Shown: positions 9,106 through 52,089 of the stretch, in pieces | Numbering within the stretch: the first letter of the stretch is position 1 | How the letters are laid out: each line of letters begins with the position of its first letter | Assembly (NCBI GenBank): GCA_965225625.1 | Contig: CBDDBH010000025.1 | Coordinates: 96,152 to 160,151 of the forward strand | Length of the DNA: 64,000 nucleotides | DNA from: Gammaproteobacteria bacterium | GTDB lineage: Bacteria > Pseudomonadota > Gammaproteobacteria > JADZEE01 | Reading direction: 5' to 3' | The notes under the pieces: generated by a model | Databases searched by the model: none | The model's input: only the letters and a program-made list of their open reading frames with translations | What the model was told of the DNA's origin: nothing | Translations under genes and position numbers: made by a program

Positions 9106-10605
9106 ATGAACACGTCGCACCAAGTGCGAATGCCAACTACCAACTCGCAAGCACCGACTCGGCGTAGACACCTCAACCACGTATCGAAACACGATACAAT
9201 TCACAGGCCAGCATTCGGGGGGCATCGCTTGGCCGACTCCATCATCCAGCAGTTAGTCCACCGCAAGATGTTCCGCATCACGGCGGGGTATCTGGCGGTG
9301 GCGTGGGTGCTGTGGCAGGTGGTAGACACTACGTGCCCGACCTTTGAGTGTTCGCTGTCATTTCAGAAGTCCATATTCTGGTTTCTTGTAGCCGGATTGC
9401 CGGTCACGCTTACAGTTGCTTGGGTGCACTGGAAGACGGCCATCCTTGTCGGTGTGGGAATACTTGCCGGGATAACGGTCACTCTTCTGGTGACTCGAGC
9501 TACATCGCCTGCCCCAGAGTCTAAAACTACCGCGATTACCCCGGTGACCGAAGTTACCCAGCCTGCCCCCACACCCACCGCAACAGTTGAGGAGAAGTCC
9601 ATCGCAGTGCTGCCGTTTGTGAATATGAGTGATGACCGGGAGCAGGAGTATTTCAGTGACGGTATATCGGAGGAAATACTAAACGGTCTCGCTAAGGTAG
9701 AGACGCTGCGTGTCGCTGCGCGGACCTCGTCGTTCTTTTTCAAAGGTAAGGACGCCGATCTGGAGACAATAGCTGAGAAACTGGGTGTCGCCCATGTCCT
9801 GGAAGGTAGTGTCAGAAAGGCGGGTGATCGACTTCGTATCACGGCGCAACTAATTAAGGTCGATGACGGCTTTCACTTATGGTCCGAGTCTTACGACCGT
9901 GAACTGACGGACATCTTTGCTGTTCAGGATGAGATTGCCAATGCAGTTGTCGATGCGTTGAAGATAGAACTGGGTGTTACAGCGGGCAGTACATTGGTAG
10001 ATATCGGCACGACCAACCGCGAAGCCTACGATTGGTATTTGCGCGGCAAGGATGCATTGGTTACCGGTAGCTTAGAGGGATTCCAACGCGGCGTTGGATA
10101 CTTCAATCGCGCGATTGAGCTGGATCCCGACTATGTTGATGCTTACGCCTATCTCGCGTTCGCGCACATATTGCAACATCCGTTTACGCTCTACCAAAAA
10201 CCCTACCGAGAATTAGCACCGGACATCAAACACGCCTACTCGCGGGCCTTGGCATTGGAGCCCGCACACAGTGCGGCGCTGTGCGCTAAGGGATATGACA
10301 AGATGTTTTTAGAGTGGGACTGGTCCGAGGCGGGGAAGCTATTCCGAGCAGGGACTGGCGAGGGTAAGGTTAATGACGTTTGCCTGGGAACCTATGTCGC
10401 GTGGTATCTTCTAGCGCTCGGTCAGTACGAGGAGGCAATCGCATTACTTCGCAGCGCCGAGCGGAGCGATCCCCTGAATCTCGAGCTTAAACATCAGCTC
10501 GGCGCTTATCTTGGACAATTTGCCGGCGAGTGGGAAGAAGGGAGCAACCACCTCCGTGCAGTAATCGACGCCGTGCCCGACCACGTATTCGCGCTCACCG
10601 ATTTA
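9106..10605 (+). pseudogene. TolB-N-like/TPR-repeat membrane protein, 5' portion, interrupted by an IS630-family insertion
   Basis: It has a TM helix MFRITAGYLAVAWVLWQVV and a TolB-N-type motif IAVLPFVNMSDDREQEYFSDGISEEILNGL followed by TPR-like helices. The reading frame runs into the IS at 10606. The ORF-track start at 9022 is probably too early. Confidence 0.65.
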
Positions 10606-11706
10606 CTCAGCAGTCGCCAATATAGGCGACAGATGGAGCAAGAAAGAATGATCGAACAAGGTGGGGCATACGCTTGAGTTGGGTGAGTTGCTCCTCGATC
10701 TTCTCGCGCAGTGTTTCGCCCGCCCGCAGCGTCCGTCGCGCCGCACCCGTGCGCTTGACGTGACTCCACACCCATTCATCGGGGTTCAGGTCTGGCGCGT
10801 AACCGGGCAGAAAATGCAGGCTCAGCCGGCCATTCGTCGAAGCGACGTAGTCGCGCACGCACGCGGTCTTGTGCGCCGGCAGACTGTCGAGCACGAGATG
10901 CACCGGTTTGCGCCGGCCCCGCATGAGCTGGCGCAGCAAGGTGACAAACAAATCGGCTTTGAGCGCGCCGCTATAGGTGCAAAACCAGAACGCCCCGTTG
11001 GCGTTGACCGCCGAGGCGGCACTGAACGATTGACGCTGTCCGGGTCGGTACACGACCGGCGTCTGGCCGCGCACGCCCCAGGTCTTACCGTGCACCGTAT
11101 CAGCACGGAAGCCAGACTCATCCCAGAAAAACACCTCGCCACCGTGCTGTTTCGCTTGACGGGCGATGGCTGGGAAGGTTTCACGCTGCCAGCGTTCAAT
11201 CGCCTCGGGGTCCCGCTGATAGGCTCGCTGCAGCGGCTTGTGCGGCGTCAATCCCAGTTTCGCCAACAACTCCCCGACCGCCGTGACGCCTATCGTCACC
11301 CCGAACTTCTGCGTCACCAACTCCACGACCACCGCGCGCGTCCACAAGCCGAAGTCCAATCCATACTGTCGCGGGTCACGACCATTGATCCAGCGGAACA
11401 CCTGTCGCTCTTGCGCCGCGCTCAGGGTTCGTGGCCGCCCCGTAGCCTTCGTCGAACGCAACGCCTTGATGCCGACACCCGGCTGCAGCGCCGCTTTGAT
11501 CCATTTGTAGATGGTCGTCCGGTTGAACCCGAACGATGCGATCACCGTCGCCGGCGACTCGCCTTCGCGAACGCGCTCTATCGCCATCAAGCGAATAGCT
11601 TCCAAGGTCGAATGGTCAAGCGTGCGGCCGTCCAGTTTCATATCTGATCCGATCGGTACGCTCTCAGAAAGTTCCATCGATGTCGCCTTATTTATCGACT
11701 AGTGAG
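10606..11706 (-). mobile_element. IS630-family insertion sequence, copy 1 (1101 bp, imperfect ~27-bp terminal inverted repeats, TA target-site duplication)
   Basis: The left end reads ctcagcagtcgccaatataggcgaca. The right end, reverse-complemented, reads ctcactagtcgataaataaggcgaca. TA dinucleotides flank it at 10604..10605 and 11707..11708. It is about 99% identical to copy 2. Confidence 0.8.
10607..11677 (-). CDS. IS630-family DDE transposase
   Basis: The 356-aa protein has an N-terminal HTH, a DDE core and the IS630/Tc1-type motif YAPDLNPDEWVW. Confidence 0.85.
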   Translation of the reverse strand: MELSESVPIGSDMKLDGRTLDHSTLEAIRLMAIERVREGESPATVIASFGFNRTTIYKWIKAALQPGVGIKALRSTKATGRPRTLSAAQERQVFRWINGRDPRQYGLDFGLWTRAVVVELVTQKFGVTIGVTAVGELLAKLGLTPHKPLQRAYQRDPEAIERWQRETFPAIARQAKQHGGEVFFWDESGFRADTVHGKTWGVRGQTPVVYRPGQRQSFSAASAVNANGAFWFCTYSGALKADLFVTLLRQLMRGRRKPVHLVLDSLPAHKTACVRDYVASTNGRLSLHFLPGYAPDLNPDEWVWSHVKRTGAARRTLRAGETLREKIEEQLTQLKRMPHLVRSFFLAPSVAYIGDC

Positions 11707-11708
11707 TA

Positions 11709-12170
11709 ATTGCTATACATCTCAATTCGGGTCAACTGGAAAAAGCGGAATCGCTGCTCCGTTCGGAAAGTTTAAAAGGGCCGAACACCTATCCGTATGC
11801 CATGTGGTTGCGGGTTGTGCTTGACGTTCTCCGCGGTGATAGCGCTAAGGCGCAATCTGTCTATGATGAGGCGCGGCGCATTGGCGAGAGCAGCGTCAAC
11901 AAATCACCGGACCTGTGGCATGGCCTGGGGTTCGCAGCGGCGTCATTGGGTCATCTAGACGAAGCGATAAGCTGGTTCAACCGCGGTTTCGAGGAGGAGG
12001 CTTTGGCTAGCGTCGTGGTGCGCCCGTTCGTAACGTCGTGGTCAGCGTTTAAGCAAGGCCACGGCCCTGCCCTCATGGCCCACCCCGACTTCCAAGCGTT
12101 CCTTGCGAAAATGAATCTAGACGATGCGTCAATAGCGGCGTTGGAGGCGGCTGCAGCAGCAGGGGATTAA
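11709..12170 (+). pseudogene. TolB-N/TPR protein, 3' portion downstream of the IS630 insertion
   Basis: The frame opens immediately at the IS boundary. Removing the IS and one TA copy restores a continuous in-frame ORF ...ALTDL|IAIHLNSGQLEKAESLLRS...MWLRVVLDVL..., which continues with TPR-like sequence. Confidence 0.65.
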
Positions 12171-12192
12171 GCATCTCTGCTAGGCGAGATGG

Positions 12193-12528
12193 TTGTCGGA
12201 AGAACGCATTCTCAAAATGAAATCCGGACAAGATTACTCGCCGAATCGTAAAGCCGCTCTAATCGATAGAATTTTGAGTAGCACGGCTTATGTATGCGAG
12301 GCCCTCGACAACATGGCTTCTGATCAGCGGGACGCGTTACGTGACAACGTCGCCAAGGTAATCGCGGATCCCGGCGCTTCACTTGAGTCAGTGCTAGACG
12401 TTTATCGGATCGAGGTGCCCAGATTTGCCGCTTTGTGGCGCGACCTTGAGAATGCTCACCAAGACTCAGGGCGGTCTGCGGCAATTGAGCATATTTTGGC
12501 CGGGAACTACGGGACCAAACTGCGATGA
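12193..12528 (+). CDS. Hypothetical protein (111 aa)
   Basis: ORF only; no motif recognised. Confidence 0.3.
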   Translation: MSEERILKMKSGQDYSPNRKAALIDRILSSTAYVCEALDNMASDQRDALRDNVAKVIADPGASLESVLDVYRIEVPRFAALWRDLENAHQDSGRSAAIEHILAGNYGTKLR

Positions 12529-12811
12529 GGGACCCGAAAAGCACCGCTCGCTGACTTCGTCGAGTTAATGGACGCCCAGGTCATAAGCCCCGAATAGACT
12601 CCCCGCCGGCAGTCTGCGAAGCTGCCCTGACACATCAGCGGGGAGCATGACGATGAGTAAGTATGAGAGGGTGGATCCGTATAACGAATTAAGCACAGCT
12701 ATAGGCGAACACGTCATGAGTTTTGCCGGTATGCTGTTTTCTGGCGGTCTGTGTAATCAGCGTCGTATTCCTGCGCTCCGCAAACCGCGGTTTTGAATCA
12801 GGAGTTTGACT

Positions 12812-15028
12812 ATGCTCAGGCTATTCTCAAATAAGCAGCGTCCGACCCATCTGGGCCCCTACCCGCTTGAACGCTTGCCGCGCGCTGAAGAAATTCCGTC
12901 GTATACACCGGCGAGCGCGCCCGAGCCTCTTGAGATAGTGGATAGTGCGAACCTTTATAGTGTTGCCAACGCGTTGCCACGATCTTTCGATTTATATCGC
13001 AGGCTGCGCGATGGCAAAGTTCGCGCAGACGAGGCCGTCATTCCCACGGATCCTTCGGCCCGTTCGCAGCACCTGAAAAGCTTTTGCTATTTCCTCGATG
13101 CAAGTCAGGTTGGGGTTTGCGCTATCGCTGAGCGAGCGCGACTGGCAAGCCCAATAAAGATCGAATTTGGTAGTGCGGGCGACGGAAATACGGATGCCAC
13201 AGCACAAATTCGACACGACGCGCTTACCAAGCACGAAAACGAATACGGCGAACAATTAGGCGATCCGAGTAAACACAAGTTCGCGCTAGCCATTCTGATC
13301 GAGCATTCCCAAGATCCCGCGCCTGGCGCTCCGGGTTCTGAGTTTATTCGAGGCAGCCATGCAGCACGCTCCGCAGTTCGCGCAGCCGAGCTCGCGGTCA
13401 CGATTGCGATGTACCTGCGTCGGCTCGGTTGGCCAGCACGCGCCCACCTTGCGACGGCAAGCGAGCTGGATCACGACTACATTCTGCTGGCCGCCGGGTT
13501 GGGCGAAGTCACTTCCAGCAAAGGAATTGACCGCGTAACCAATCCTTACCTCGGCGATCGCTTCGGCGTCGCCATTGTTTCGACCACGCTGGAATTAGGC
13601 GTCGATCAGCCTTTGGCTCGACGGGGCCTGGCGGCCAACCTTCTGGCTCGCGGACCGCGATACTGGCTCGGCGTCGGCGGCACGCGTCCCGGCTGGAAGT
13701 GGATCACGGGAGAATCCCGCCCACTCCACAAGGGCGTCTATCCGATGGAGGGGATAAAACACGTTGAAAAAGCTACTACCTATATTGACGTCGAGGCCAT
13801 ACAACGCGTGCCCAAACGCGCAGACTTTTTCAGTCGGGGTGCGTTCGGCGATCTTGGGCCAGCTGCAGAACGCGAGAGCGTTGGCGGCCACTTCATGGAG
13901 AAGGAGCCCATCGGCGCGACTATGGGTGTGGTGGTAACGGAAGGCGTACCGTTGCAGTTCGGCGAGCCGGCGGCAACTAAAGCGCCGCATTCCGATGACC
14001 CGGATCGCAATATGCACAGTATCCGTGCGCTTTGCCATTTCTTGGGAGCGGACATTGTCGGCTTTACCCCGGCCTATGCGCATACCTGGTATTCGCATCA
14101 CTTCGACGGCACCCCGATCGAGCCTTATCACAAAAATGCGATCGTCCTCGTGCTCGACCAGGACCAGGAAACCATGTCCGGCTCAAGCGGCGACGACTGG
14201 ATTAGCAACGCCCAGAGCTTTCGCGCATACATGCGAGGCGCCTTTCTCTCCAACATTGTGGCCGAACATATCCGCGGCCTCGGCTGGTCGGCGCGATCGC
14301 ACACCGCCTGGGACGAGGACGTGCTGCACATTCCTTTGTGTGTACACGCCGGTATCGGCGAGTTGAGTCGCATTGGCGAGACGGTACTCAACCCATTTTT
14401 AGGGCCTCGTTTCAAAGACGCCATCGTGACCACTGACTTGCCGCTGACGCCCACCAAATATGTTGATTTCGGTTTGCAGGATTTCTGCGGCAAATGCCAG
14501 AAATGTGCCCGTGAGTGCCCCTGCGACGCGATCCCCTACGGCGACAAAATTCTTTTCAATGGCTACGAAATCTGGAAACCGGACGTGCAACGCTGCGCGA
14601 CTTATCGGATCACCAACTCAGCGGGTGCCGTGTGTGGCCGCTGCATGGCCACCTGCCCGTTTCAGACAGAAAGCACCGTGTTTAACCGTGGCCTCTTATG
14701 GGCTTCGATCTATCTGCCGTTCCTTCGTAGCTCGCTGGCAAAGTTTGATGACTGGCGCCGCAACGGTGAGATCAATCCCGTAAAGAAGTGGTGGTGGGAT
14801 CTGGAGGACACCGGCCATGGTCTCGGACCGGCCAAGCGGGTCAACGCAAGGCCGCTGTTCTTCAAACCGCGAATAGAAGGTAAGAAACGAAAACAAAACG
14901 CCGTATTTCCGCCACACATGAACCCGCCTCCAGCTGCAACCGAAGCGGTGCCGGTCGATCGCGCCGCCGGTATTGCCGCGCAACTACAGTGCGCAGCCGA
15001 TCTGCAACGCTTGAAGGAAAAACAATAA
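12812..15028 (+). CDS. Reductive dehalogenase homolog (RdhA superfamily; cytoplasmic, catabolic-type two-domain architecture)
   Basis: The C-terminus has twin ferredoxin motifs, FCGKCQKCARECPCDAIP and CGRCMATCPF. The RDH/QueG-like motif occurs twice: AAGLGEVTSSKGIDRVTNPYLGDRFGVAIVSTTLELG in a degenerate N-terminal domain and AGIGELSRIGETVLNPFLGPRFKDAIVTTDLPL in the C-terminal domain. The ATG at 12812 is preceded by AGGAG. Confidence 0.7.
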   Translation: MLRLFSNKQRPTHLGPYPLERLPRAEEIPSYTPASAPEPLEIVDSANLYSVANALPRSFDLYRRLRDGKVRADEAVIPTDPSARSQHLKSFCYFLDASQVGVCAIAERARLASPIKIEFGSAGDGNTDATAQIRHDALTKHENEYGEQLGDPSKHKFALAILIEHSQDPAPGAPGSEFIRGSHAARSAVRAAELAVTIAMYLRRLGWPARAHLATASELDHDYILLAAGLGEVTSSKGIDRVTNPYLGDRFGVAIVSTTLELGVDQPLARRGLAANLLARGPRYWLGVGGTRPGWKWITGESRPLHKGVYPMEGIKHVEKATTYIDVEAIQRVPKRADFFSRGAFGDLGPAAERESVGGHFMEKEPIGATMGVVVTEGVPLQFGEPAATKAPHSDDPDRNMHSIRALCHFLGADIVGFTPAYAHTWYSHHFDGTPIEPYHKNAIVLVLDQDQETMSGSSGDDWISNAQSFRAYMRGAFLSNIVAEHIRGLGWSARSHTAWDEDVLHIPLCVHAGIGELSRIGETVLNPFLGPRFKDAIVTTDLPLTPTKYVDFGLQDFCGKCQKCARECPCDAIPYGDKILFNGYEIWKPDVQRCATYRITNSAGAVCGRCMATCPFQTESTVFNRGLLWASIYLPFLRSSLAKFDDWRRNGEINPVKKWWWDLEDTGHGLGPAKRVNARPLFFKPRIEGKKRKQNAVFPPHMNPPPAATEAVPVDRAAGIAAQLQCAADLQRLKEKQ

Positions 15029-15096
15029 GGCGTTTAGTGGAGTCTTGGCTCCATAATTGAGCGGTGTATACGTCTTACGAATAAGGAGAGACTGGT

Positions 15097-16311
15097 ATGC
15101 CACGGTTGTTCATTCTCGTCGTGTGTTTGCTGCTGAGCGGCCACGTCTCCGCAGAGCATCCACAAGGTTCCGCCGATATCGTGCTTCGCAATGCACGGAT
15201 CATCAATGCGGCCGGGAACGTAATGCAGGGCGGTTCTCTTGTCATTAGCGGTGATCGGATCAGCGCCGTTGAGCCTGGGCTAACGCCGGTTCGCGCAGCT
15301 GTTGAGATAGACGCTACCGATTTGACGGTGATGCCGGGCCTGATCGATGCGCATCGCCATTTATTGATCAGACCCGATCTGGACAGCGACGCCGCATTAT
15401 CGCGATGGCAAGATGAGCACCTTCAGGCAATGCTCAACGAATACCTGGAAAGCGGTTTTACAACCGTCCTGTCGGCGGGCGACTATCACCCGGCAATTAT
15501 CCAGATAAAGCAGCGTCTAGCGGACGGGACTTTAACCGGGCCCCGGATTCTCGCCCTCAGCGTCGTGTTTACAGCGCCAGGCGGCCACCCGGTGCTTACT
15601 ATCTGTAAGAACAATCCGTGGTGCCAACAGCGCGTCGCGATCCAAGTCGCCGATCCTGACACGGCCCGCGCGACAGTCAGAGATTTTGCAAAAACCGATA
15701 TCGACGGCTTAAAGCTCATTTATGACGGCTATCTCGGTGTACGGCTCGACGACTCTGTTTTCGCGGCCATCGCCGACGAAGGACGGCGACATAGCGTGCC
15801 CGTGTTTGCGCACGCCTCAAGCGTGGAAGATATGATTCGAGTTGTCGATCTAGGGGCCAATCGGCTGGTTCATCCGCCGTATTTCGGTTCACTCGCCGGA
15901 ATCAAGGCTGGACGAACGCTGCGTGACGCAGCGGTGATGGTTACCACGACAGTCTCCCGACCGCTCGGCCTCACAGCGCCGGATCGTGTCCAAGCGCTGG
16001 CAAACCTGCGACAGCTCTGGGATGACGGTGTGACCATCGCTTTCGGTACCGACCTGCAAGTTGGGCCCGCCGCCGGCCTGGCGCGTGAGACTCAGCAACT
16101 CGCACAGGTACTCTCGCCAAGCGAGATCATCAGCGCATTGACTCGTAACGCCGCCCTGTTCCTGGGACTGGGTGCGGAGATCGGTACCCTTGAGGTCGGT
16201 AAGGTCGCCGACATATTGATCGTCACGGGTGATCCGCTAAATCGAATTGAAGATCTGGCGAACGTCGTAATGGTAATCCGCAACGGTGCCATTGTCGTCG
16301 ATCATCGCTGA
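15097..16311 (+). CDS. Amidohydrolase-family metal-dependent hydrolase, secreted
   Basis: It has a signal peptide and the PGLIDAHRH metal-binding motif, then GTD...H motifs. It starts 69 bp downstream of the RdhA-like gene. Confidence 0.75.
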   Translation: MPRLFILVVCLLLSGHVSAEHPQGSADIVLRNARIINAAGNVMQGGSLVISGDRISAVEPGLTPVRAAVEIDATDLTVMPGLIDAHRHLLIRPDLDSDAALSRWQDEHLQAMLNEYLESGFTTVLSAGDYHPAIIQIKQRLADGTLTGPRILALSVVFTAPGGHPVLTICKNNPWCQQRVAIQVADPDTARATVRDFAKTDIDGLKLIYDGYLGVRLDDSVFAAIADEGRRHSVPVFAHASSVEDMIRVVDLGANRLVHPPYFGSLAGIKAGRTLRDAAVMVTTTVSRPLGLTAPDRVQALANLRQLWDDGVTIAFGTDLQVGPAAGLARETQQLAQVLSPSEIISALTRNAALFLGLGAEIGTLEVGKVADILIVTGDPLNRIEDLANVVMVIRNGAIVVDHR

Positions 16312-16359
16312 AACATGCGATTGCTTGCCTAGCGTCGCGTTCAAGATTCCCAACGCCGA

Positions 16360-17092
16360 TCACCGCGCCGGTGGCGCCACTGTTAGCTGGCCTGTCACGC
16401 CGTGCTGTTCGATGAGGCTGGCAACCAATCCGCTTGCTTTTGCTTCCTCGACGAAGTCGTTTAAGAAGGCGGCACCGATCGCGTGATCCGGCTTCGTGCC
16501 GATGGCCTGTTGCACTGAGGAGTACTTACCTTCGAGTATGCGCGAACCGGGAAGGCGCTCCACGTCATTTATGAGGCGCGGCCGCAATCCCGCCAGCGCA
16601 TCAAGGCGTTGCTGCACGAATAGATCGAAGGACGCATCCATGCCGTCGGTCTCGACGAGATCCGCGTGTTTGATATTGTCCTTCAACCACAACCCGTAGG
16701 CGGCGCGGCCGTAAACTGCAATGCGCACACCTTCTCGGTCTACTTCCTCGATGGACTGGATAGACGAACCAGCGGGCAGCAGATAGGTAGATTCAATTTC
16801 CGCGTAGGCGGCGGTGAAGGTAATCACTTTCGCACGTTCGGGCTCCGCCCCAATGTTGGCGATGTCCCATATGTCCTCGGAGGCCGCGTCCGCCAGCTCA
16901 CCCGGTGTCTGGAAGTCTATGTACTGCACTGGCACGCCCAAGCGCGCCGCAACTACGCGGGCCATATCGGGAGACACGCCTTGCGGGCTCTCCCGCAGCG
17001 CTTCTGCCGGTAACAAGGAGAAAGTTGGAGAGGTTGATGCCGGCGCGAAGGACACCGGTGGGCGCCAACTCGGCACGTGCTTGTTCGATCAT
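16360..17092 (-). pseudogene. Substrate-binding protein of the periplasmic-binding-protein type (family 3/PhnD-like); frameshifted near 16960-16990
   Basis: The N-terminal segment GVLRAGINLSNFLLV lies in ORF 16898..17092. The remainder, SPDMARVVAARLGVPVQYIDF..., lies in ORF 16360..17076 in a different frame. Confidence 0.5.
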
Positions 17093-17222
17093 TGAGCTCA
17101 GCCCTTGTTTCAGTTACCTAACAACTTTATTCGTGAAGCTGCCTTATAAGCAAGACGGGCGCTCGTTTAGATGAATAGCATTCCGTATACTTAACTGTAG
17201 CAGCGGCCCATAGAGGGCAAAT

Positions 17223-18475
<1,253 letters not shown>

Positions 18476-18521
18476 GAAATTGCAGCATCTGTTTACGTTT
18501 ATAGTTGTCCAGGGCCCAGCT

Positions 18522-19239
18522 ATGCACAACGTGGAACTACCGCAGGACCTGATTGACTTCGTCATGTCCCGGCGCGGTCGTCTAAACGTTTTTGACGATA
18601 TTGATCCAGCGACTACGGCGATGCTGGTCATTGATATGCAAAACGCTTATGTTGAGCAGGGCGCTCCGCTGCATCTTCCCTGGGCGCCCGGCATTGTTCC
18701 TGAGGTGAATACATTGGCGGCGGCGCTGCGCGAGGCCGGCGGTCTGGTCGTGTGGCTGCAACACACGAACGGTGCTCCGGGCACGTCTGATTATTGGTCG
18801 ATGTATTTTGATAACTTTGTTGATCCGAACAAGCGCGAGGCACTGGGCACTGGGCAATGCGTTAACGCCGGGTAGTCATTATCACGGTCTGGCACCGCAA
18901 TTGGATGTACACCCAGATGATCTGGTATTGGATAAAAGGCGCTTCAGCGCACTGATCCCCGGTTCGTCAACGCTGGATGAAAATCTGCGCGGGCGCGATA
19001 TAAAGACGGTGATAGTGACCGGCACCTTGACCAATGTTTGCTGTGAGTCAACCGCGCGCGATGCCATGATGATGGATTACCGGGTATTTATGCCCATGGA
19101 CTGTACCGCCGCACGTAGTGATAACGATCATCTAGCCGGATTGCGAACAGTTTGTCAGGCAATCGGTGATGTACGCTCGAGCGCCGAGCTCATCGACATG
19201 ATAAAGCAGGGAACCGGAGCAGCAGGCGACGCGAGTTAA
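18522..19239 (+). pseudogene. Isochorismatase-family cysteine hydrolase, disrupted by a 7-bp tandem duplication (gcactgg gcactgg at 18840..18853)
   Basis: It contains MLVIDMQNAY and VIVTGTLTNVCCESTARDA. Removing one gcactgg copy fuses the two ORFs in frame as ...REALGNALTPGSHYHG.... Confidence 0.7.
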
Positions 19240-19254
19240 GGAGAGCCCACGGCA

Positions 19255-42274: not shown

Positions 42275-42649
42275 CACTCTCGCGTTCTCACAGTTGAATT
42301 GTCGCGGAAAACGAACGACGGGTATCGAGAAGAGCCGACGGTCGCAGATAATCGCTGCAAAAGACCGCAATGGATCGAGGCTGTGTGAAAACAGCCTGGG
42401 TCGAAAGCGTACTCGCGCAGATTGCGAAATGGCCATAGTTATCCACATTTTCTCTGCTCTATTTTCTCGCTGAACTAGTCTAATCATTCCGCGAAGTTAG
42501 CGACTCCAAAACGTACTACGAGTTCGAAATCAACTCTCTCCGCCACGCAGTCTGGTCTCTGAGGATCGGTTCTCCGGTTGTCCTTCCTCAAAATTGGTCT
42601 GCGTTGATTTTGTTGCACTTTTTCTTCCAGCCCAGTTAGCCTGGCAGCC

Positions 42650-43672
42650 ATGTTGAAATGGTTGGGAATACTCCTCGGAACTCTCAGAAGCGCGCTTAGC
42701 AGCCGCCGTGAGCTGGCACTTGAGAACTTAGCGCTGCGTCAGCAGCTAGCCGCGGTCAAACACCGTCATCCAAAGCCGCGACTAACGGACACCGATCGCC
42801 TGTTCTGGGTTTTGTTGTCGCGGGTGTGGAAGTACTGGCGGAACTCACTGCACCTGGTCCAACCGGGCACCGTTGTGCGCTGGCATCGCCAAGGATTTCG
42901 CTACTATTGGCGTTGGAAGAGTCGGGGCCGGGGTCGCCCAAAGATTGAACCCGAACTGAAGGTTCTCATTCGGCAAATGTGTCGTGCCAATCCCCTGTGG
43001 GGTGCACCCCGGATCCATGGCGAGCTTTTGAAGCTAGGCATTGATGTCGCGGAGGTAACGGTGTCCAGGTACATGCTTCGTCGTCATGGGCCACCGTCTC
43101 AAAGCTGGCGAAGTTTCCTGGACAATCATTCCCGAGAGCTGATCTCGATGGATTTCTTCACCGTGCCTTCAGCAACGTTTCGAGTGCTATTCGTGTTGGT
43201 GATACTAAGCCATGAACGTCGGCGGATAATCCATTTCAATGTGACCGCGCATCCGACGGCGGTGTGGACAGCGCGACAACTGTTGGAGGCCGTCGGTGAG
43301 GGCGAAACGCCTGGGTACGTGCTCCGAGATCGTGACCGAAGTTACGGCAGACGATTCTCTCGGCAAGCCTCAGCGTTGGGTATAGAAGAAGTACTGACAG
43401 CACCCCGGTCGCCATGGCAGAACGCGTACGCGGAGCGGGTGATCGGATCTATCAGGCGAGAGGTCCTCGATCACGTCATCGTTCTTGGGGAACGGCATCT
43501 GAGACGGATGATGAAGCGATACGTTAGCTACTACAACGGCACGCGGACCCATCTATCACTGGAGAAGGATGCGCCGGAGAGGAGATCAGTGCAGCCACCG
43601 TGTGCGGGGAGGGTGGTCGAGTTACCTCGAGTGGGCGGACTGCATCATGAATACATTCGGCTGGCAGCCTAG
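42650..43672 (+). CDS. DDE transposase with an integrase (rve) core domain; IS481-family-like, family assignment tentative
   Basis: 340 aa with an N-terminal HTH (LALENLALRQQLAAVKHR), then GRPKI...LIRQM..ANPLWGAPRIHGELLKLGIDVAEVTVSRYM, a DDE/rve core with MDFFTVPS, and a C-terminal SPWQNAYAERVIGS. Confidence 0.7.
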   Translation: MLKWLGILLGTLRSALSSRRELALENLALRQQLAAVKHRHPKPRLTDTDRLFWVLLSRVWKYWRNSLHLVQPGTVVRWHRQGFRYYWRWKSRGRGRPKIEPELKVLIRQMCRANPLWGAPRIHGELLKLGIDVAEVTVSRYMLRRHGPPSQSWRSFLDNHSRELISMDFFTVPSATFRVLFVLVILSHERRRIIHFNVTAHPTAVWTARQLLEAVGEGETPGYVLRDRDRSYGRRFSRQASALGIEEVLTAPRSPWQNAYAERVIGSIRREVLDHVIVLGERHLRRMMKRYVSYYNGTRTHLSLEKDAPERRSVQPPCAGRVVELPRVGGLHHEYIRLAA

Positions 43673-43814
43673 GTCTGCTTGCGGATGAATATTGAGGAAC
43701 ACAGGTCATCTTATATTAGAGTTCCCTGCTAATTCCTCTAATTCATGGTGCCGACTTTGGTGAATGCAGCTGAAACTGGGATGAACAGAGGGTTTCAGCT
43801 GTAATAGTTCCTAT

Positions 43815-44066
43815 ACCATCGAGTCGTGTGAAAAACTGCTGCCAGAATAATAACAAGCAGGAGTAGCCGCGTTGCAATGGTTTGTCGCCGCGTGTTCAGC
43901 GTGTTTTAAATCGGGGACACAACTTACTGCTGAAATCATGTGTCTTCGCCAGCAGTTAGTTGTTCTCAAACGTCGCCAGCCGCGACCTACATCACGTCTA
44001 TCGGATGGCTGCCTAAGTCCAGACGACGTTTTTTCCCCCTTCGGCAAGCGACTAAAGGTAACCTAA
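43815..44066 (+). mobile_element. Left-end fragment of the same rve-type IS as at 37686, with a truncated transposase N-terminus (MQWFVAACSACFKSGTQL...LKRRQ)
   Basis: The first ~125 nt are near-identical to 37686..37810, then the sequence degrades. Confidence 0.55.
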
Positions 44067-44492
44067 CCTGACATATCAAGACTGCTCCAATCTGGCCAGA
44101 TTCAACTCCCAACTTGCCAAGCGTCTTCAGCAGGTTATTCAATTCCGGCAGCTTGATACCACGAACAAACTCTCTTTCCCAGGCCAGCGCATTCTCTTCA
44201 ATCTGCTCAAACGTGCGTCTGCCCTTTGCATTGATCTTCAGTTTGATGAGTCGATTATCCTGTTTGCTCTTGGTACGAGAAATCAGGCTTTTTTCAATCA
44301 AACGATCAAGCGCGCGGGTAATCGTTGCTTTATCGATGCCAGTTTTTTATGAATATCTCGGGATGAGACGTCATCCTGTTCGGACAAGATAACCAAGATG
44401 CTGAACTCGGGTTCGGAAATACCCAGATTTTCGTGCGTGGAGGCCAGAAGCCGTAGCGATCGCTCATTAATTGCCTTGAAGCGGCAAGGCAA
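43987..44492 (-). pseudogene. MarR-family transcriptional regulator; frameshifted in a T-run near 44335
   Basis: ORF 44298..44492 has the wing/HTH LSEQDDVSSRDIHKKLA. ORF 43987..44301 continues with LIEKSLISRTKSKQDNRLIKLKINAKGRRTFEQ.... The junction is at agtttttta. Confidence 0.6.
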
Positions 44493-44749
44493 AAAATTCT
44501 GGAAAACCAGTCTAGATTCTTGAGATCTCTTTGTTTGCGGTCCCGGCCAAAGTCAACTCTCCCAAAACACGAAGAAGTACCACCCGAATGCGAGGTGGCT
44601 AACCTAATATAGTAAGACAACTGCTGGATCCGCACCAGCCCGCACGTAGTCGCAGCGACACCGCGAACGCTTGCATTGACGATTTATTCGTTTATTATAA
44701 AACGTTTTATATAAAAAGATAAATTGAAAACTCGTTGAGGAAGGCACGA

Positions 44750-45139
44750 CATGAATACCAAAAACGCCAGACCAATCCGCTATCGAAGCAACCATTCAAA
44801 AGTACATCGATGGAATCGCCCAGCACAATACGGATCTGATTACGGAAGCTTTTCATTCCGACGCCATCATGAGTAGTCACCGTGGCGACCAGTTCAGCAT
44901 CGTGCCCGCCCGCGCAATCGATTGTGAATTATATGAATAACATCCCACCCATCAGCGAAACCAGCCCCGACTTCGCTGGCCGCATAGTTTCCGTTGAGCA
45001 AAAGGACACCATGGCGACCGCGGTGATCGCTGAGGACCGGCTCGAAGGGCTGAATTTTGTGACTTATTTCCACTTACATAAGGTTGATGGCACCTGGCTG
45101 ATCTCCAGTAAGGCAACCTATGGCGAACCTGCTGCGTGA
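44750..45139 (+). pseudogene. NTF2-like (SnoaL/lumazine-binding-like) small protein; frameshifted
   Basis: One frame reads AIEATIQKYIDGIAQHNTDLITEAFHSDAIMSSHRGDQFSIVPA (about 44770..44935). ORF 44882..45139 continues with IVSVEQKDTMATAVIAEDRLEGLNFVTYFHLHKVDGTWLISS. Confidence 0.45.
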
Positions 45140-45208
45140 ACTAAGGTTCGCAACGCCCAGGAAGGGAATAAAGGAGTTTCTGCAAGATCCGTCCGTGAGG
45201 AAACAGTC

Positions 45209-45742
45209 ATGAGTAACCTGGTCAAACCGACGTTCTCAGAAGAAGAGATCCGTAGCATCCGAGACGGCGTTAATGGCGTGAAGGGCACCATTCCAGCCCG
45301 TTTTTATTACGACGAGACCATTTACCAATACGAAGTGGAGCACGTACTCAAGAAAAACTGGCTGTGCGTCGGGCGCTGGGACCAGGTTGAACATCCCGGC
45401 GATTACTTCACTCTCAGAATGTGGGGCGAATCAATTGTTATCGTCCGCGACAAAGCAAACGAACTTCATGCTCTGATTAACGTGTGCCAGCATCGCTGGT
45501 CGCAAGTTGTCCATGACGGCAGTGGCAACGCCAATCTCTTTACCTGCCCGTATCACAACTGGACCTACAACTTGGACGGCAGTTTACGCGGTATGTCCGT
45601 GCAACCGGTCCCAGGGGTAGATAAGGCAACCTGTCGTATGCATAAACTCAGGATCGAAGAGTGGCAAGGATTTGTTTTCGTCAACTTCGAAAGCGATGCC
45701 AAGCCATTGGCCTGTGTGTGGCGAATTACTATTTCGCGCTAG
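45209..45742 (+). pseudogene. Rieske non-heme-iron ring-hydroxylating oxygenase alpha subunit, N-terminal Rieske domain only; truncated by an IS right-end fragment at about 45708
   Basis: The Rieske motif is CQHRW...CPYHNW. The last residues ...ACVWRITISR* are encoded by the repeat also found at 38018 (CVWRIAILR*). No catalytic domain follows. Confidence 0.65.
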
Positions 45743-46151
45743 CTAGAGCTTGTCCATGGGAAGGAATTTGCAACTGGTTGCAAAAAAGAGGGCTCCTCAG
45801 ACCTTCTTGAACACGGTGTTTAAACGAAACGTTGCACAGCAACATGCCGGCGTTACGGCGCTGCGTTTACGTCTCGTCTGTTGCTGAGCAACACATCGCC
45901 TTCGCCCGGTATGGAGCTTGTCCGTTAAAGTGGCTTTCTAGCCACCAGATCGATCAGCGCAGACATTCCCGAATGACCGAACCCTTCATCGATGCTGTCA
46001 TCGTGACTTTGCAAATGTTCGATATCAAAATCCGAGAACGTCTGCTGGAGAAAATCTTCTGTGTACATGTTATCCCTATCGGGTGGGCCACCAGTGCCAT
46101 ATTCGATTTGCTCCGGGCCGATAACCTTGCAAGACGAATAGTCCACTGGGC

Positions 46152-46550
46152 TTAAGGGCGTTTTGCAGGTTTTCGAATAGCCCCCCCGCGTTGATCTGGC
46201 GCGGCAAATTGAATGAAAATCGCAACGATGGCGTCATATGACCTCGCTGCGAATTCGTGGGTAAAGAGGTCGACTTGTTCGGTCTTGATCTTCACCCCCC
46301 GCTTGGCCGCAAGTTTTTCCGCCTTCTCTAGCGCCACGTCGGAGAAATCCACCGCATGGACGCCGGTACCTAGGCTGGCGAGAAAAGTCCCGTTACGACC
46401 TTCCCCATCGGCAACGGCCAGCACTTTTTGCCCGGCCGAAAACAACGCGGCCTGAGATTTTAGAAAGCTATTTGGCTCGGTTCCAAATAGATAGCCTTCC
46501 TTCCCAAACCGCTTGTTCCAAAAAGTCTGCTCTTGGTTTTCTTGGTTCAT
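46152..46550 (-). CDS. Class I SAM-dependent methyltransferase (small, TehB-like); C-terminus may be truncated
   Basis: VLAVADGEGRNGTFLASLGTGVHAVDFS is a SAM-binding motif I-like segment. Confidence 0.5.
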   Translation of the reverse strand: MNQENQEQTFWNKRFGKEGYLFGTEPNSFLKSQAALFSAGQKVLAVADGEGRNGTFLASLGTGVHAVDFSDVALEKAEKLAAKRGVKIKTEQVDLFTHEFAARSYDAIVAIFIQFAAPDQRGGAIRKPAKRP

Positions 46551-46839
46551 TATTCAAAGCCCACATGCTCTGGTTGGGTAAATACATTTGGCAGCACGAA
46601 TCACACGTGTTCGAGAGGTGATTGGGACCGCCTTAAGGGCGGCATTTCAATTATGTTGGATTCGAGCGACTGAGAGTATCGCTGCATCGCCAAATTCGGC
46701 TATTTGCCGCTTTTTGGCACCCCCGGGTCGCCATTGCCCGGCTAATGACGTTCACTCAAATCATTGAAGAGGACCGAAATTGGTCACCCAATGGGGACCA
46801 ATTAAGATCTCTGCGGACAATTTTTTCCGACCTAGGGTT

Positions 46840-47106
46840 TCAGCTGACATTGCGGTCTCTGCAGCGCACGATTATCAGCGTATCATCGCGGACGCTGTAG
46901 ACTAAGGAATGCTCCCGCGACATCGGCCGAGACCAAAGCCCGTCATACGTAGACGGATGGCGATCGCAGGTGAGGCCAAGAAACGGCTCGCGCATAATGC
47001 TGTCGATCGTGTCCTCGATGCTATCTAACTGGTGCATGTTGGCGTTCTGCCAATAACGGTAATCGTCGCGAGCAGCCGGCTCGAAAATAATCCGTGAGAA
47101 CTTCAC
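46840..47106 (-). CDS. yoeB: YoeB/Txe-family toxin (type II TA ribonuclease)
   Basis: VKFSRIIFEPAARDDYRYWQ ... GLWSRPMSREHSLVYSVRDDTLIIVRCR aligns with E. coli YoeB (MKLIWSEESWDDYLYWQ...GFWSRRITEEHRLVYAVTDDSLLIAACR). A GTG start is assumed. Confidence 0.7.
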   Translation of the reverse strand: MKFSRIIFEPAARDDYRYWQNANMHQLDSIEDTIDSIMREPFLGLTCDRHPSTYDGLWSRPMSREHSLVYSVRDDTLIIVRCRDRNVS

Positions 47107-47134
47107 GCTCGCCAGCGCGGGGCCGCCAGTTGAG

Positions 47135-47758
47135 CTACGCAACGGAGTAATCTCGCGCTACCAGACACGCTGTCATGGCCCGGCGATAGTCAAACGGGCT
47201 CGCATCCGCAGCAGTGGATTTGGGAACGCTCGGGTCGAAACCACTTTTGCGAGCCGCCCAGGTGTGGCATTCGAAGCGGTCTTTGGACTGTTGATCCTCG
47301 TCTTGCTCATCCTTCGGATAAATGAACACGTTGTAGTCAACATTGGCGACGGCCAAGTCGGAGGGCGGGGGCAAAGTCGGACCGGCAACGACCACGTATC
47401 CCCCAGCGGAGGACTCCCATGCGTAATAAGTATTATTCACGAGGTAGTACGGGCGATGACGTATGTGCACGACGTGATGGCGAGGCGGCAGTGCACGTAT
47501 CATTGCACCAATGGGCGCGGCAACGGCGACGTAACTGCCGCTACTCTCGTTGTAGAACACGCCGCTGGCGTAAAAATACGCAAAGCTACCCACCGTGATA
47601 CGCACGTGCCCGCCGGGCAGTCTGTTTAACCGGTGTCCGGGCGCGTGGAAACGACTAGCCTTGCTGTCGTGCTTGCGATGGCTGCGAGGCGGATCGGCCA
47701 AGGCCGGTACAGCGAGTACTGTGATAATGACCGTTGTAAGGAATATTTTAATCTTCAT
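47135..47758 (-). CDS. Secreted hypothetical protein with a signal peptide
   Basis: The N-terminus MKIKIFLTTVIITVLAVPALA is a signal peptide. No motif recognised. Confidence 0.4.
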   Translation of the reverse strand: MKIKIFLTTVIITVLAVPALADPPRSHRKHDSKASRFHAPGHRLNRLPGGHVRITVGSFAYFYASGVFYNESSGSYVAVAAPIGAMIRALPPRHHVVHIRHRPYYLVNNTYYAWESSAGGYVVVAGPTLPPPSDLAVANVDYNVFIYPKDEQDEDQQSKDRFECHTWAARKSGFDPSVPKSTAADASPFDYRRAMTACLVARDYSVA

Positions 47759-48232
47759 TTCCATTCTCACTTCCGTTGATCTAGCGGTGTCTCACGCTAC
47801 GCAGAAACCTGTGCTCCCTATTGGCGTTGTCTGAATCGACTAGTAACCATGTTTCACCCGGCTCCTTGATTCACGCGCATCGCAGAACAAAGGGGGCCAA
47901 ATTCACCGTAGGGGTGGGGGGACACGGAGGGTTGGTGAATTTGGCCCCTGCTAAACGCCAAATGGCTAATATGATCTCTTGCGTGGATTCGATGAACATG
48001 ACGCTCTAAAACGAGTGCATGTGACTTCCGTTGACAGGCAGGAGGGGTGATTTTTGTCACGAAGTGTAAATGATGCCGCGGGGCGACTTCCGGAAACCCG
48101 TTGTGTAGGTCTGGTTCTACCCCGACATGAGGTGGCCTAGGTCGTCCATGGTCATGATGTCAGCGTATGCGCTCGTTACCGCAATCATCGTGGCGATCAG
48201 GATTGTCCTGACCGCCGTCGTGGCCGCGACTG

Positions 48233-49474
48233 TCATATCTCGCCCGAGCGATCGTGGTGCTCGTCCTTGATGTAGCAAACGCAGGTGAGCGCGACGGCCG
48301 CCAGGCATGCAAAGATTAGAAACATCAGGTCGTAGCTTCCCGTGCGATCGTAAATTTCGCCACCCACGTAGGTCCAAAGACCACCTGCCAGATGGTGAAA
48401 GGTCATGACAAAACCCATGGTAACGCCAATGTGTGTGAGACCGTAAAGCTTGCCGAGCAGCGTGGGCGTGATCGGAGCCGTAATGAGAAAGGTAATACCG
48501 AATCCAACCGCGAAGACATAAAACGCTACGCTCGAGTGCCAGTTCAAGATCAAAACGAACAGGAGCAAACGCACGGCGAAGGCGAACGCCATCGGGATCT
48601 TGTTACCGATGACGTCCGCGACCGGGCCCGCGAGCAGGAGACCCGCGAGGCTCGTCAAGCCAAACAACGCGAGCATACGTCCAGCCATAGTCGGCGTCAT
48701 GCCGTTATCAGTGACCAACGGGACGAAATGTGTCATGACGGCGAAATCCGCGCCGCCGCAGATGATCATGGACACGAGGAAGAGCCAGTACGAACGCGTC
48801 CGCAGCGCGTGCCCGATCGAAACATCCCCGCTGGATGGGGCCGCGATCGGCTCACCGGTACGCGATTCCGTGTCGCTGCCGTATGCCTGCAACCCCATGT
48901 CTCCCGGTTCGCGGATCACGAGGAACCCGAGGGCTGTGATCACCACGAACATCATCGCGGCGACCGTGAGGTAGGCCGTCCGCCAGTCGTATTCCACAGT
49001 GATGCTGGTCAGCAGCGGTACCAGGACAAACTGACCTATGGAGGCGCCTGAGATGGTCAAGCTGGCCGCCATGCCACGGCGTTTGACGAACCATTTGGCG
49101 ATGATTGCCGATATCAACGGTACCGAGGTCCCGCCGATACCGAGCGCCACGATCACTCCGTAGGAAATGTAAAGCTGCCACAGCGCGGACACGTTTGCGG
49201 TCAGCGAGTAGCCGAGGGTGAGGAGCAGGGCGCCGATGGTGAGGATCGGCCTTGGTCCGATGCGGTCGTAAAGGCGTCCGATGAACACCATTGATGTTGC
49301 CAGCACGGTCATGTTCAGAAAATAGACGGATGAGATCGCGCCACGATCCCAGCCGAACTCGGCCGCCATGGGCTTAAGCATCACCCCGAACGAAAGATGC
49401 GTGCCAGTGCTCAGGAACAGAACGACGAACGCCGCCGCCAATACGTACCAGCCGTAGAATATCCTGGCTTTCAT
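48233..49474 (-). CDS. MFS transporter (oxalate/formate antiporter-like)
   Basis: 413 aa with 12 predicted TM helices. Confidence 0.7.
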   Translation of the reverse strand: MKARIFYGWYVLAAAFVVLFLSTGTHLSFGVMLKPMAAEFGWDRGAISSVYFLNMTVLATSMVFIGRLYDRIGPRPILTIGALLLTLGYSLTANVSALWQLYISYGVIVALGIGGTSVPLISAIIAKWFVKRRGMAASLTISGASIGQFVLVPLLTSITVEYDWRTAYLTVAAMMFVVITALGFLVIREPGDMGLQAYGSDTESRTGEPIAAPSSGDVSIGHALRTRSYWLFLVSMIICGGADFAVMTHFVPLVTDNGMTPTMAGRMLALFGLTSLAGLLLAGPVADVIGNKIPMAFAFAVRLLLFVLILNWHSSVAFYVFAVGFGITFLITAPITPTLLGKLYGLTHIGVTMGFVMTFHHLAGGLWTYVGGEIYDRTGSYDLMFLIFACLAAVALTCVCYIKDEHHDRSGEI

Positions 49475-49561
49475 TTCGGGCGCGTTTTTAAAGATCCATG
49501 TGTAAAAAAGGTGTCAGATCACTGCTCTGCGCGTACTGCGATTTCCTGATCCTCTATTGAA

Positions 49562-50695
49562 CTATTCCGATTTCAGCCGACTATCGAGCAGCCATTGAGA
49601 CGCCCGCGTATTTTCACTCCGTCCCGCCCTGCGGTAGGCATCAAAATCTACGGTTTCCGGATAGGTTTCGTCGTTTGCCACCACCATACGTACCCGAATG
49701 TCGTCAGGTGTGACATTAAAGACGACCCCGTCACGCGCCAACACCAGCGGCCCGCTATAAGTAGAACGGATATCGTCGTAAACCAATGGGACGCTTTGTA
49801 GGTCATAGAAAAAATGAAAGGCGACCGCCATTCGTGGTTTAACAAGGCTGAACATACGACCAGCTGCCGCCGGCTGCGTATGGATCAACGATCCGACAAT
49901 ATTCGCCAACTTTTCATCCCAGCCCCATACATCGATCATGCGCTGCACGGTGTCAATCGATTCGTGGAGCAGTAAATCGACGTTACGGGCATTTTCGAGC
50001 ATGAATTTTGTCTGAGTGGTGTCTCCCGAGAAAACGAAACTCAATTCGTTCCAATCGAGCCGGTAACTCACCGGACCGTCCGGCCCGTGTAACGCCGGGA
50101 AGCTGGAAATAGTAACGCCGTTTTGTTGATACACTGTTTGCGTTTTCGAATAATCGAACTCGTGGATTTCCAGCTCCGCCCCCGCCGCGGGCAACTTACC
50201 GTGCCGACTAGCCAGATCCCAGGTCCATGCGGCTTTCTGCATTTTCAGAAAATGTGCGGTACCCATTTCTGGCGTCGCTCCGGACGGACCCCATATCCTG
50301 AGAGGACGGTCCCAACGTCCGGCGAGCCACCCGCCGATCCAGATCTCCGCCAGGTCGCCTGCATGGTCGGAATGCAGGTGAGACAGAAACACTTTGTCCG
50401 CATCACGGTAGGAAACCCTGAGCGGCGGGAAATTCATCTGTGAGCCCGTGCCGATATCAAAGAAGAACTTATCGCCGTTGCCCAGTTCAACAAACCATGA
50501 GGTTGAGGCTTGGGATTTACGCGGGGACGGATTTCCGGTGCCAAGTGCAACTACCCGCATCTCGTCCTCTGCGAGTGTTTCCGTGCCGGGGTAGTAATCT
50601 GTACGGTGGTAGTTAGCAAATGACTCCTGGGCTGAGATGTTTAGGCTAAACAAAGCAAAAAACGTCGAACTCGCGAACAACAATGTGGTCTTCAT
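49562..50695 (-). CDS. MBL-fold metallo-hydrolase, secreted
   Basis: It has a signal peptide and the HxHxDH motif LSHLHSDHAGD. Confidence 0.7.
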   Translation of the reverse strand: MKTTLLFASSTFFALFSLNISAQESFANYHRTDYYPGTETLAEDEMRVVALGTGNPSPRKSQASTSWFVELGNGDKFFFDIGTGSQMNFPPLRVSYRDADKVFLSHLHSDHAGDLAEIWIGGWLAGRWDRPLRIWGPSGATPEMGTAHFLKMQKAAWTWDLASRHGKLPAAGAELEIHEFDYSKTQTVYQQNGVTISSFPALHGPDGPVSYRLDWNELSFVFSGDTTQTKFMLENARNVDLLLHESIDTVQRMIDVWGWDEKLANIVGSLIHTQPAAAGRMFSLVKPRMAVAFHFFYDLQSVPLVYDDIRSTYSGPLVLARDGVVFNVTPDDIRVRMVVANDETYPETVDFDAYRRAGRSENTRASQWLLDSRLKSE

Positions 50696-50844
50696 GTTTC
50701 GCTCACTCCATAAATACATTTGCGGGATCACTCACGTTGTTACTTCCGTGCATCTGAATTCTGCGCGGAGCCGAAACTGTCGACGCCAAGGGCGCTCTTT
50801 CGACTCCAATGCCGGCGGCAGCGATAATAGCAAGAATCGATTTA

Positions 50845-51945
50845 CTCAGCAGTCGCCAATATAGGCGACAGATGGAGCAAGAAAGAATGATCGAACAAGG
50901 TGGGGCATACGCTTGAGTTGGGCTAGTTGCTCCTCGATCTTCTCGCGCAGTGTTTCGCCCGCCCGCAGCGTCCGTCGCGCCGCACCAGTGCGCTTGACGT
51001 GACTCCACACCCATTCATCGGGGTTCAGGTCTGGCGCGTAACCGGGCAGAAAATGCAGGCTCAGCCGGCCATTCGTCGAAGCGACGTAGTCGCGCACGCG
51101 CGCGGTCTTGTGCGCCGGCAGACTGTCGAGCACGAGATGCACCGGCTTGCGCCGGCCCCGCATGAGCTGGCGCAGCAAGGTGACAAACAAAGCGGCTTTG
51201 AGCGCGCCGCTATAGGTGCAAAACCAGAACGCCCCGTTGGCGTTGACCGCCGAGGCGGCACTGAACGATTGACGCTGTCCGGGTCGGTACACGACCGGCG
51301 TCTGGCCGCGCACGCCCCAGGTCTTACCGTGCACCGTATCAGCACGGAAGCCAGACTCATCCCAGAAAAACACCTCGCCACCGTGCTGTTTCGCTTGACG
51401 GGCGATGGCTGGGAAGGTTTCACGCTGCCAGCGTTCAATCGCCTCGGGGTCCCGCTGATAGGCTCGCTGCAGCGGCTTGTGCGGCGTCAATCCCAGTTTC
51501 GCCAACAACTCCCCGACCGCCGTGACGCCTATCGTCACCCCGAACTTCTGCGTCACCAACTCCACGACCACCGCGCGCGTCCACAAGCCGAAGTCCAATC
51601 CATACTGTCGCGGGTCACGACCATTGACCCAGCGGAACACCTGTCGCTCTTGCGCCGCGCTCAGGGTTCGTGGCCGCCCCGTAGCCTTCGTCGAACGCAA
51701 CGCCTTGATGCCGACACCCGGCTGCAGCGCCGCTTTGATCCATTTGTAGATGGTCGTCCGGTTGAACCCGAACGATGCGATCACCGTCGCCGGCGACTCG
51801 CCTTCGCGAACGCGCTCTATCGCCATCAAGCGAATAGCTTCCAAGGTCGAATGGTCAAGCGTGCGGCCGTCCAGTTTCATATCTGATCCGATCGGTACGC
51901 TCTCAGAAAGTTCCATCGATGTCGCCTTATTTATCGACTAGTGAG
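50845..51945 (-). mobile_element. IS630-family insertion sequence, copy 2 (TA target duplication at 50843..50844 and 51946..51947)
   Basis: Its ends are near-identical to copy 1. Its transposase differs at about 4 residues. Confidence 0.8.
50846..51916 (-). CDS. IS630-family DDE transposase
   Basis: 356 aa, about 99% identical to the 10607..11677 copy. Confidence 0.85.
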   Translation of the reverse strand: MELSESVPIGSDMKLDGRTLDHSTLEAIRLMAIERVREGESPATVIASFGFNRTTIYKWIKAALQPGVGIKALRSTKATGRPRTLSAAQERQVFRWVNGRDPRQYGLDFGLWTRAVVVELVTQKFGVTIGVTAVGELLAKLGLTPHKPLQRAYQRDPEAIERWQRETFPAIARQAKQHGGEVFFWDESGFRADTVHGKTWGVRGQTPVVYRPGQRQSFSAASAVNANGAFWFCTYSGALKAALFVTLLRQLMRGRRKPVHLVLDSLPAHKTARVRDYVASTNGRLSLHFLPGYAPDLNPDEWVWSHVKRTGAARRTLRAGETLREKIEEQLAQLKRMPHLVRSFFLAPSVAYIGDC

Positions 51946-52089
51946 TAAACGACGTTTCCTGTTTCATGTATAGCGAGTGCCCTTGTTGAAATATCTGCTT
52001 GTAATGCCATGAACATCTAGTCCGATCCTTGACAATTGCAACATCGAGATTTGTTCCGAGCGCCGGTCAAATAGAGTAAAGGAGGTCTT

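Follow-up and report, generated by a model that had tools for sequence, protein, structure and literature searches.

The described systems closest to the locus analysed here are insertion sequences (IS) of the IS630 family. IS630 itself, the type element, comes from Shigella sonnei, is approximately 1.1 kb in length and encodes one transposase with helix-turn-helix (HTH) and DDE domains; it has inverted repeats, duplicates the dinucleotide TA and favours TA inside CTAG (Tenzen and Ohtsubo 1991, as cited in PMC2170065). ISY100 (ISTcSa) from Synechocystis is a biochemically characterised IS630/Tc1/mariner member, the transposase of which was alone sufficient in vitro to excise the element and to join its 3' ends to TA with a 2-bp stagger; its target is TA, with little further context needed (PMC2170065). 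ISHsp2, an IS630-family element of Halomonas sp. ZM3, is associated with TTAA targets, all four bases of which are reportedly duplicated, and is reported to require a programmed frameshift between two open reading frames (ORFs) (PMC3606827). The subject of this study is a pair of IS630-family copies, about 39 kb apart, in a stretch of 64,000 nucleotides (the window) from a Gammaproteobacteria bacterium (assembly GCA_965225625.1, contig CBDDBH010000025.1, positions 96,152 to 160,151 of the forward strand). These copies very probably represent two independent insertions of one multicopy, recently active element.

The window element was compared with IS630 through the family model and the features of the element, and shared with it the length of about 1.1 kb, the single HTH and DDE transposase, the inverted repeats and the duplicated TA; in contrast to the CTAG preference of IS630, TTAA was present at all complete sites examined. 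The likeness to ISY100 lay in the architecture and the TA duplication, but ISY100 has a loose TA target, whereas the window element required TTAA. With ISHsp2 it had in common membership of the IS630 family and the association with TTAA; however, the reported 4-bp TTAA repeats and two ORFs of ISHsp2 were replaced by repeats of TA only (T-TA-IS-TA-A) and a single 356-aa ORF. A strict need for the 4-bp palindrome TTAA combined with a 2-bp duplication was not found described for the IS630 family in the literature searched. A search of a plasmid collection with the IS gave no match, and a scan of species-representative genomes returned more distant relatives in Rhodocyclales metagenome-assembled genomes (74-81% identity) and one 35-nt match, with nothing closer. 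The element is an unnamed member of the well-known IS630 family.

The two copies form a direct 1.1-kb repeat pair with starts 40,239 bp apart. When compared base by base, the repeat identity spanned 10599-11709 and 50838-51948, with unrelated sequence outside both, and there were 7 mismatches over the 1101 bp of the IS (99.4% identity). The features of the pair, with the evidence for each, were as follows.

10606..11706, minus strand (the strand of the transposase gene): IS630-family IS copy 1, 1101 bp; repeat comparison, gene reconstruction and homolog empty site.
10607..11677, minus strand: copy 1 transposase gene, intact, 356 aa; Pfam, NCBIfam and motif positions.
10606..10631, partner 11681-11706: left terminal inverted repeat of copy 1; end-to-end comparison.
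10604..10605, partner 11707-11708: left TA target duplication of copy 1; flanking sequence, gene reconstruction and homolog empty site.
50845..51945, minus strand: IS630-family IS copy 2, 1101 bp; repeat comparison, and the same insertion also in another assembly (L006).
50846..51916, minus strand: copy 2 transposase gene, intact, 356 aa; ORF comparison with copy 1.
50843..50844, partner 51946-51947: left TA target duplication of copy 2; context T-TA...TA-A.

A preliminary description of this DNA, made from the letters of the window, had reported two IS630 copies in the same orientation, flanked by TA, approximately 39 kb apart and approximately 99% identical, and every coordinate that it gave was found to hold. 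The inverted repeats of copy 1 were imperfect, with 19 of 26 terminal bases matching, and its target was TTAA, made up of 10603-10605 and 11709. The G+C content of the IS was 61.4%, compared to 55.2% for the window. The transposase of copy 2 differed from that of copy 1 by four amino acids (I97V, D242A, C273R and T332A).

The transposase matched the NCBIfam IS630-family model NF033545 with a score of 237 bits (cut-off 100) over model positions 1-298 of 299. Pfam analysis identified a DDE_3 domain (residues 182-323, 2.9e-37) preceded by HTH_33, HTH_29 and HTH_23, and D186, D264 and E301 were the candidate catalytic triad, with a presumed catalytic role. This curated-model match and domain content, which bore out the earlier assignment to IS630, together with the short inverted repeats, the size of approximately 1.1 kb and the TA duplication, supported the designation of both elements as IS630-family insertion sequences.

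Copy 1 lies within a gene encoding a membrane protein with FlgO/TolB-like and TPR regions, which is now present in two parts.

9106..10605, plus strand: 5' part of the interrupted membrane / FlgO-TolB-like / TPR gene; ORF list, reconstruction, Pfam and homolog alignment.
11709..12170, plus strand: 3' part of the interrupted TPR gene, to the stop codon; reconstruction, homolog alignment and homolog DNA.

At present the frame of the 5' part runs on into the IS up to 10677. Removal of 10606-11708 (the IS and one TA) gave a single frame from 9022/9106 to the stop codon at 12170; the start codon of the gene is uncertain (9022, 9106 or 9268). The codon context of the insertion was ...GAT TTA ATT..., and the junction peptide after removal read ...VPDHVFALTDL/IAIHLNSGQLEKAE...MWLRVVLD (slash, junction), exactly as quoted in the preliminary description, which had rejoined the flanking ORFs in frame in this way. 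The reconstructed product had hydrophobic N-terminal segments, TPR repeats (Pfam) and a FlgO/TolB-like domain; the score of the FlgO domain (PF17680, 23.1 bits) was only just over the cut-off.

Intact relatives of 600-620 aa (67-85% identity) were found by database search, as was a 469-aa protein with the same sequence as the gene product in its present, truncated state, IS read-through included. In the alignment all seven full-length homologs (67-85% identity) spanned the junction without an indel. The DNA of one intact homolog (L025) was 91.5% identical over 1451 gap-free bp across the junction, and the predicted empty site, GATTTAATTGCT, was present in it at the exact junction position; here the sequence is CTGACCGATTTAATTGCTGTACAT in the homolog and CTCACCGATTTAATTGCTATACAT in the reconstructed window. 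The empty site and the gap-free alignment therefore fixed both the IS boundaries and the TA duplication. Since the genes that flank this homolog differ from those in the window, it validates the sequence and is not a syntenic ancestor that would represent the state before insertion. These results showed that the TPR gene was intact before copy 1 was inserted, in agreement with the original proposal. Paralogs of the TPR gene (72% and 69% identity) were present on a contig of the same organism and may explain why the loss of this gene was tolerated.

Copy 2 is intergenic, approximately 110-150 bp upstream of a minus-strand MBL-fold gene (49562-50731) and also upstream of the start of a divergent 79-aa ORF (52091-52330). 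A promoter scan around copy 2 gave a single weak match, with no excess over shuffled sequence, and no claim is therefore made about IS-driven expression. The MBL-fold hydrolase (minus strand) matched the NCBIfam GntH (guanitoxin-biosynthesis) model with 436 bits against a cut-off of 333; two PhyH dioxygenases, a methyltransferase, a Rieske protein and MFS transporters are encoded nearby.

The sites occupied by the element were then compared. Ten further full-length copies (99.4-99.5% identity to copy 1) were taken from two related metagenome assemblies, and with the two window copies they gave the arrangement T-TA-IS-TA-A at 12 of 12 sites. In the window only 116 of the 2281 TA dinucleotides fall within TTAA, and TTAA at every one of these sites is therefore not due to chance. 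A partial copy in one assembly provided a 13th TTAA site. The exact 25-nt left end was present in at least 120 JGI metagenome contigs, from which 108 distinct left flanks were compared; 102 of these ended in TTA. All 21 complete elements recovered from unrelated JGI metagenomes were flanked by TTA...TAA, and 19 were exactly 1101 bp in length.

Neither the 12 sites nor the 108 flanks gave a consensus beyond TTAA, and the candidate extended target motif 'cgat' was rejected on these data. The preliminary description had noted cgattTAa at both target sites and had suggested that target sites be compared across copies. Both window flanks do share cgattTA...TAa, but only TTAA matters; what the two sites have in common beyond it, four bases, is therefore coincidental. 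These comparisons showed a target in which TTAA is required and only TA is duplicated.

Neither P0001 nor the window transposase nor the TonB-receptor ORF gave a record on exact look-up, and cluster members took their place. At 90% identity, 64 members made up the transposase cluster. One identical 1101-bp sequence was present at five of the retrieved sites and a second identical sequence at five others. At least one retrieved copy (L020) splits a gene, that of a TonB-dependent receptor, and others were located within or beside ring-hydroxylating oxygenase, sulfate transporter and MFS transporter genes. An extra IS630 copy, inverted and internally deleted, was found at the position corresponding to window 17190-17193 (L004 17923-18822 / L009 7050-7949); it lay at TTAA and was followed by a 32-bp duplication of the target region. 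This partial copy was present in one assembly only, being absent from the window and from L010. These results showed that the element is multicopy and suggested that it is currently active.

For two independent insertions of this element, the explanation that is very probably correct, the following course of events is proposed. By analogy with ISY100 (PMC2170065), the transposase would excise the element and paste it into a TA that must sit within TTAA, and repair of the 2-bp staggered joint would duplicate the TA; the cut-and-paste chemistry of the window element would thus be that of ISY100. Copy 1 would have cut the membrane / FlgO-TolB-like / TPR gene, so that its 5' part now reads into the IS and its 3' part is an orphan, and copy 2 would have landed in a divergent intergenic region upstream of the MBL-fold/MFS gene pair. 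The copies would have arrived separately, without carrying the intervening 39 kb, and their present spacing would depend on how the DNA is arranged at an IS110 element within the interval.

Several points weigh against this explanation. The copies with identical DNA were retrieved by exact protein identity, a procedure biased toward similar copies, and cut-and-paste mobility is itself deduced from identical copies at many sites and from one insertion that differed between assemblies. When the same insertion was compared between assemblies, copy 1 differed by 1-5 bases and copy 2 by 7; the DNA flanking these insertions was 99.83-99.96% identical, and the inter-assembly differences clustered inside the repeats, where they may reflect gene conversion or consensus mixing. 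Because the same insertion varied as much between assemblies, IS-internal differences cannot date the insertions, and use of the 7 inter-copy differences as a clock was rejected. Finally, no empty site for copy 2 was found in the JGI metagenomes, and the boundaries of copy 2 therefore rest on its identity with copy 1 and on the TTAA rule. The predicted empty site for copy 2 would be AAGAATCGATTTAAACGACG, which holds a single TTAA.

The DNA between the copies, and the IS110-family element within it, were as follows.

11709..50842: interval between the copies, 39.1 kb; accessory metabolic and transport genes with mobile elements (IS110, IS91 fragments and an rve-type IS); gene tables, Pfam and NCBIfam.
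21438..22943, plus strand: IS110-family element, the point at which the context switches in other assemblies; NCBIfam IS110, 340.9 bits, and BLAST breakpoints (L009, L010, L012).

The interval encodes a reductive-dehalogenase-like protein, an amidohydrolase, a cNMP/EAL protein, hydantoinases and a TonB-dependent receptor, as well as ATP-grasp and radical-SAM enzymes, two PhyH dioxygenases and transporters. Both window transposases were found on one public contig of 180,118 bp. The arrangement differed in other assemblies from this organism. In ERZ21829562, window 1-22943 was present with copy 1 on a 364-kb contig, followed by DUF1028, Rieske and creatininase genes, and window 21438-59474 was present with copy 2 on a 682-kb contig, which entered this region from different DNA at the left. 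These two contigs have only the IS110 element in common; one matches the window to the left of it and the other to the right. Assembly ERZ28669063 repeated the first arrangement, with window 1-22943 and then different DNA past IS110. The IS110 of the window combined a 48-nt insert, as in the 364-kb contig, with single-nucleotide polymorphisms (SNPs), as in the 682-kb contig. Both IS630 insertions are present in other assemblies and therefore predate the arrangement difference or the strain split. The 39-kb spacing is therefore specific to one strain or one assembly, and it is best explained by recombination between two IS110 copies, with deletion or inversion.

The 48-nt insert is in frame in the IS110 transposase gene (window 21892-21938), giving a product of 354 aa compared to 338 aa in L012, which is without the insert. 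It resembles a 41-nt motif that begins CATnnATGCAGGAGGTAGAGC... and occurs at the right edge of IS110 (22902-22942) and 770 bp further on (23674-23714); it may represent either a repeated target or a mobile motif of small size. The 682-kb contig carries an IS3-family insertion (HTH_28 and rve ORFs; L012 13383-15019) at the right edge of IS110, at window 22892-22900, which is absent from the window.

If the true IS ends included 'cgatt' or the TAs themselves, there would be no TA target duplication, and the repeat as detected mechanically does start at 10599, five bases beyond the TA. The same 'cgatt' was present in the uninterrupted homolog DNA, however, and therefore belongs to the host gene, where it encodes part of Thr-Asp-Leu, and not to the IS. 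The frame was restored without an indel only when 1103 bp was removed, and neither the 10 other sites in the related assemblies nor the 108 metagenomic flanks showed conservation past T-TA. A shift of the boundaries is consequently next to impossible; the preliminary description had named it beforehand as a finding that would overturn its account, and the TA duplication and IS limits given there stand. A different objection concerns the distance between the copies, which would be an artefact if the window had been joined across the 1.5-kb IS110 repeat by the assembly process, the real IS630 copies being far apart. Consistent with such a join, contigs ctg256229l of ERZ21829562 and ctg81944 of ERZ28669063 run from window 22943 into different DNA (DUF1028, Rieske), the 682-kb contig arrives at 21438 from different DNA, the indels of the window relative to other assemblies lie in homopolymer runs, as expected of noisy long reads, and no second contig across the window's junction was found. 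Against it, error patterns of this kind imply long reads, which easily cross a 1.5-kb repeat, and the window IS110, with the insert of one contig and the SNPs of the other, is no simple splice; its make-up would be explained at least equally well by a real IS110-mediated deletion or inversion in a distinct strain. An assembly join is therefore unlikely, but it retains some weight.

IS-bounded composite transposons likewise have same-orientation copies of one IS with genes between them, and the two copies with their 39 kb might be regarded as a 41-kb composite transposon that moved as a unit via its outer IS ends. The direct orientation leaves one left and one right end outermost, both outer ends abut TA, and transposition of an IS630-based composite transposon has been demonstrated (Tenzen and Ohtsubo 1991, as cited in PMC2170065). 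The TA flanks are uninformative, however, because every insertion of this IS has them, and composite transposons move as a unit, whereas here copy 1 alone interrupts a gene and the interval is split between contigs elsewhere. One gene lies on both sides of copy 1 and is seamless once the IS is removed, so that the inner flank is host target and not cargo. The outer flanks of the block do not join either: the left flank of copy 1 continues at its inner flank and not beyond copy 2. Past IS110, the left part of the interval gives way to different DNA in two other assemblies, in one of which (ERZ21829562) the right part, together with copy 2, occupies a separate contig. Transposition of the block as a unit is for these reasons very improbable. 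It is somewhat less improbable, while still unlikely, that deletion or inversion mediated by IS110 has recently placed two old and independent IS630 insertions within 39 kb of each other in direct orientation and so produced a composite element at birth. If that were true, the result would be a potentially mobilisable or excisable 41-kb catabolic block, with reductive-dehalogenase-like, hydantoinase, PhyH dioxygenase and GntH-like hydrolase genes. Direct repeats of 1.1 kb that are 99.4% identical are long and similar enough to act as a substrate in RecA-dependent deletion or excision. On this general knowledge of direct repeats, deletion or circular excision between the copies, to which the preliminary description had considered the segment prone, is plausible; no deletion product was present among the contigs recovered. 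Two independent insertions remained the preferred explanation of the pair.

Several other features of the window were recorded. A 42-base poly-C run (17958-17999) in the cNMP-binding/EAL gene, where three other contigs have T and six C, breaks the gene and gives a product of 261 aa compared to 405 aa; the short-read contig L011 begins inside this run, which may be real or a sequencing artefact. The 740-aa protein encoded at 12806-15028 matched the reductive dehalogenase subfamily TIGR02486 (205 bits, cut-off 160) and contains motifs for Fe-S clusters. Compared to three other contigs, the TonB-dependent receptor gene is shorter by approximately 355 bp at 30887-30892 (619 aa as against 778 aa). 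Direct repeats of 173 nt, 88-94% identical, lie 6.1 kb apart at 37681-37853 and 43816-43987, with solute-binding protein (SBP), PhyH and rve-type transposase (42650-43672) genes between them; the rve-type transposase region had many SNPs between assemblies, as expected of a multicopy IS. Single-base indels relative to other assemblies were found in homopolymer runs at 44100-46200, 5552, 6015 and 16985. These indels split several ORFs, such as that of the PQQ dehydrogenase (4486-6388), and are likely to be long-read consensus errors rather than real pseudogenes. A 45-nt motif that begins TTTGGGGGGTCARGTCTTGTCTTTTGCTAG... is present in three copies at 51-52-nt spacing (6415-6562) between two convergent genes.

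The pair is ordinary, routine mobile-DNA biology, and both the observation and the main interpretation given in the preliminary description were correct. The gene order at 21-23 kb varies between assemblies and the 39-kb spacing is therefore not a fixed feature, and the TPR gene is to be annotated as an IS-disrupted pseudogene. The value of the finding is mainly for annotation: it adds to the IS630 family an unnamed element that follows a clean TTAA target rule, occurs widely in environmental metagenomes and has undergone recent multiplication in this lineage.

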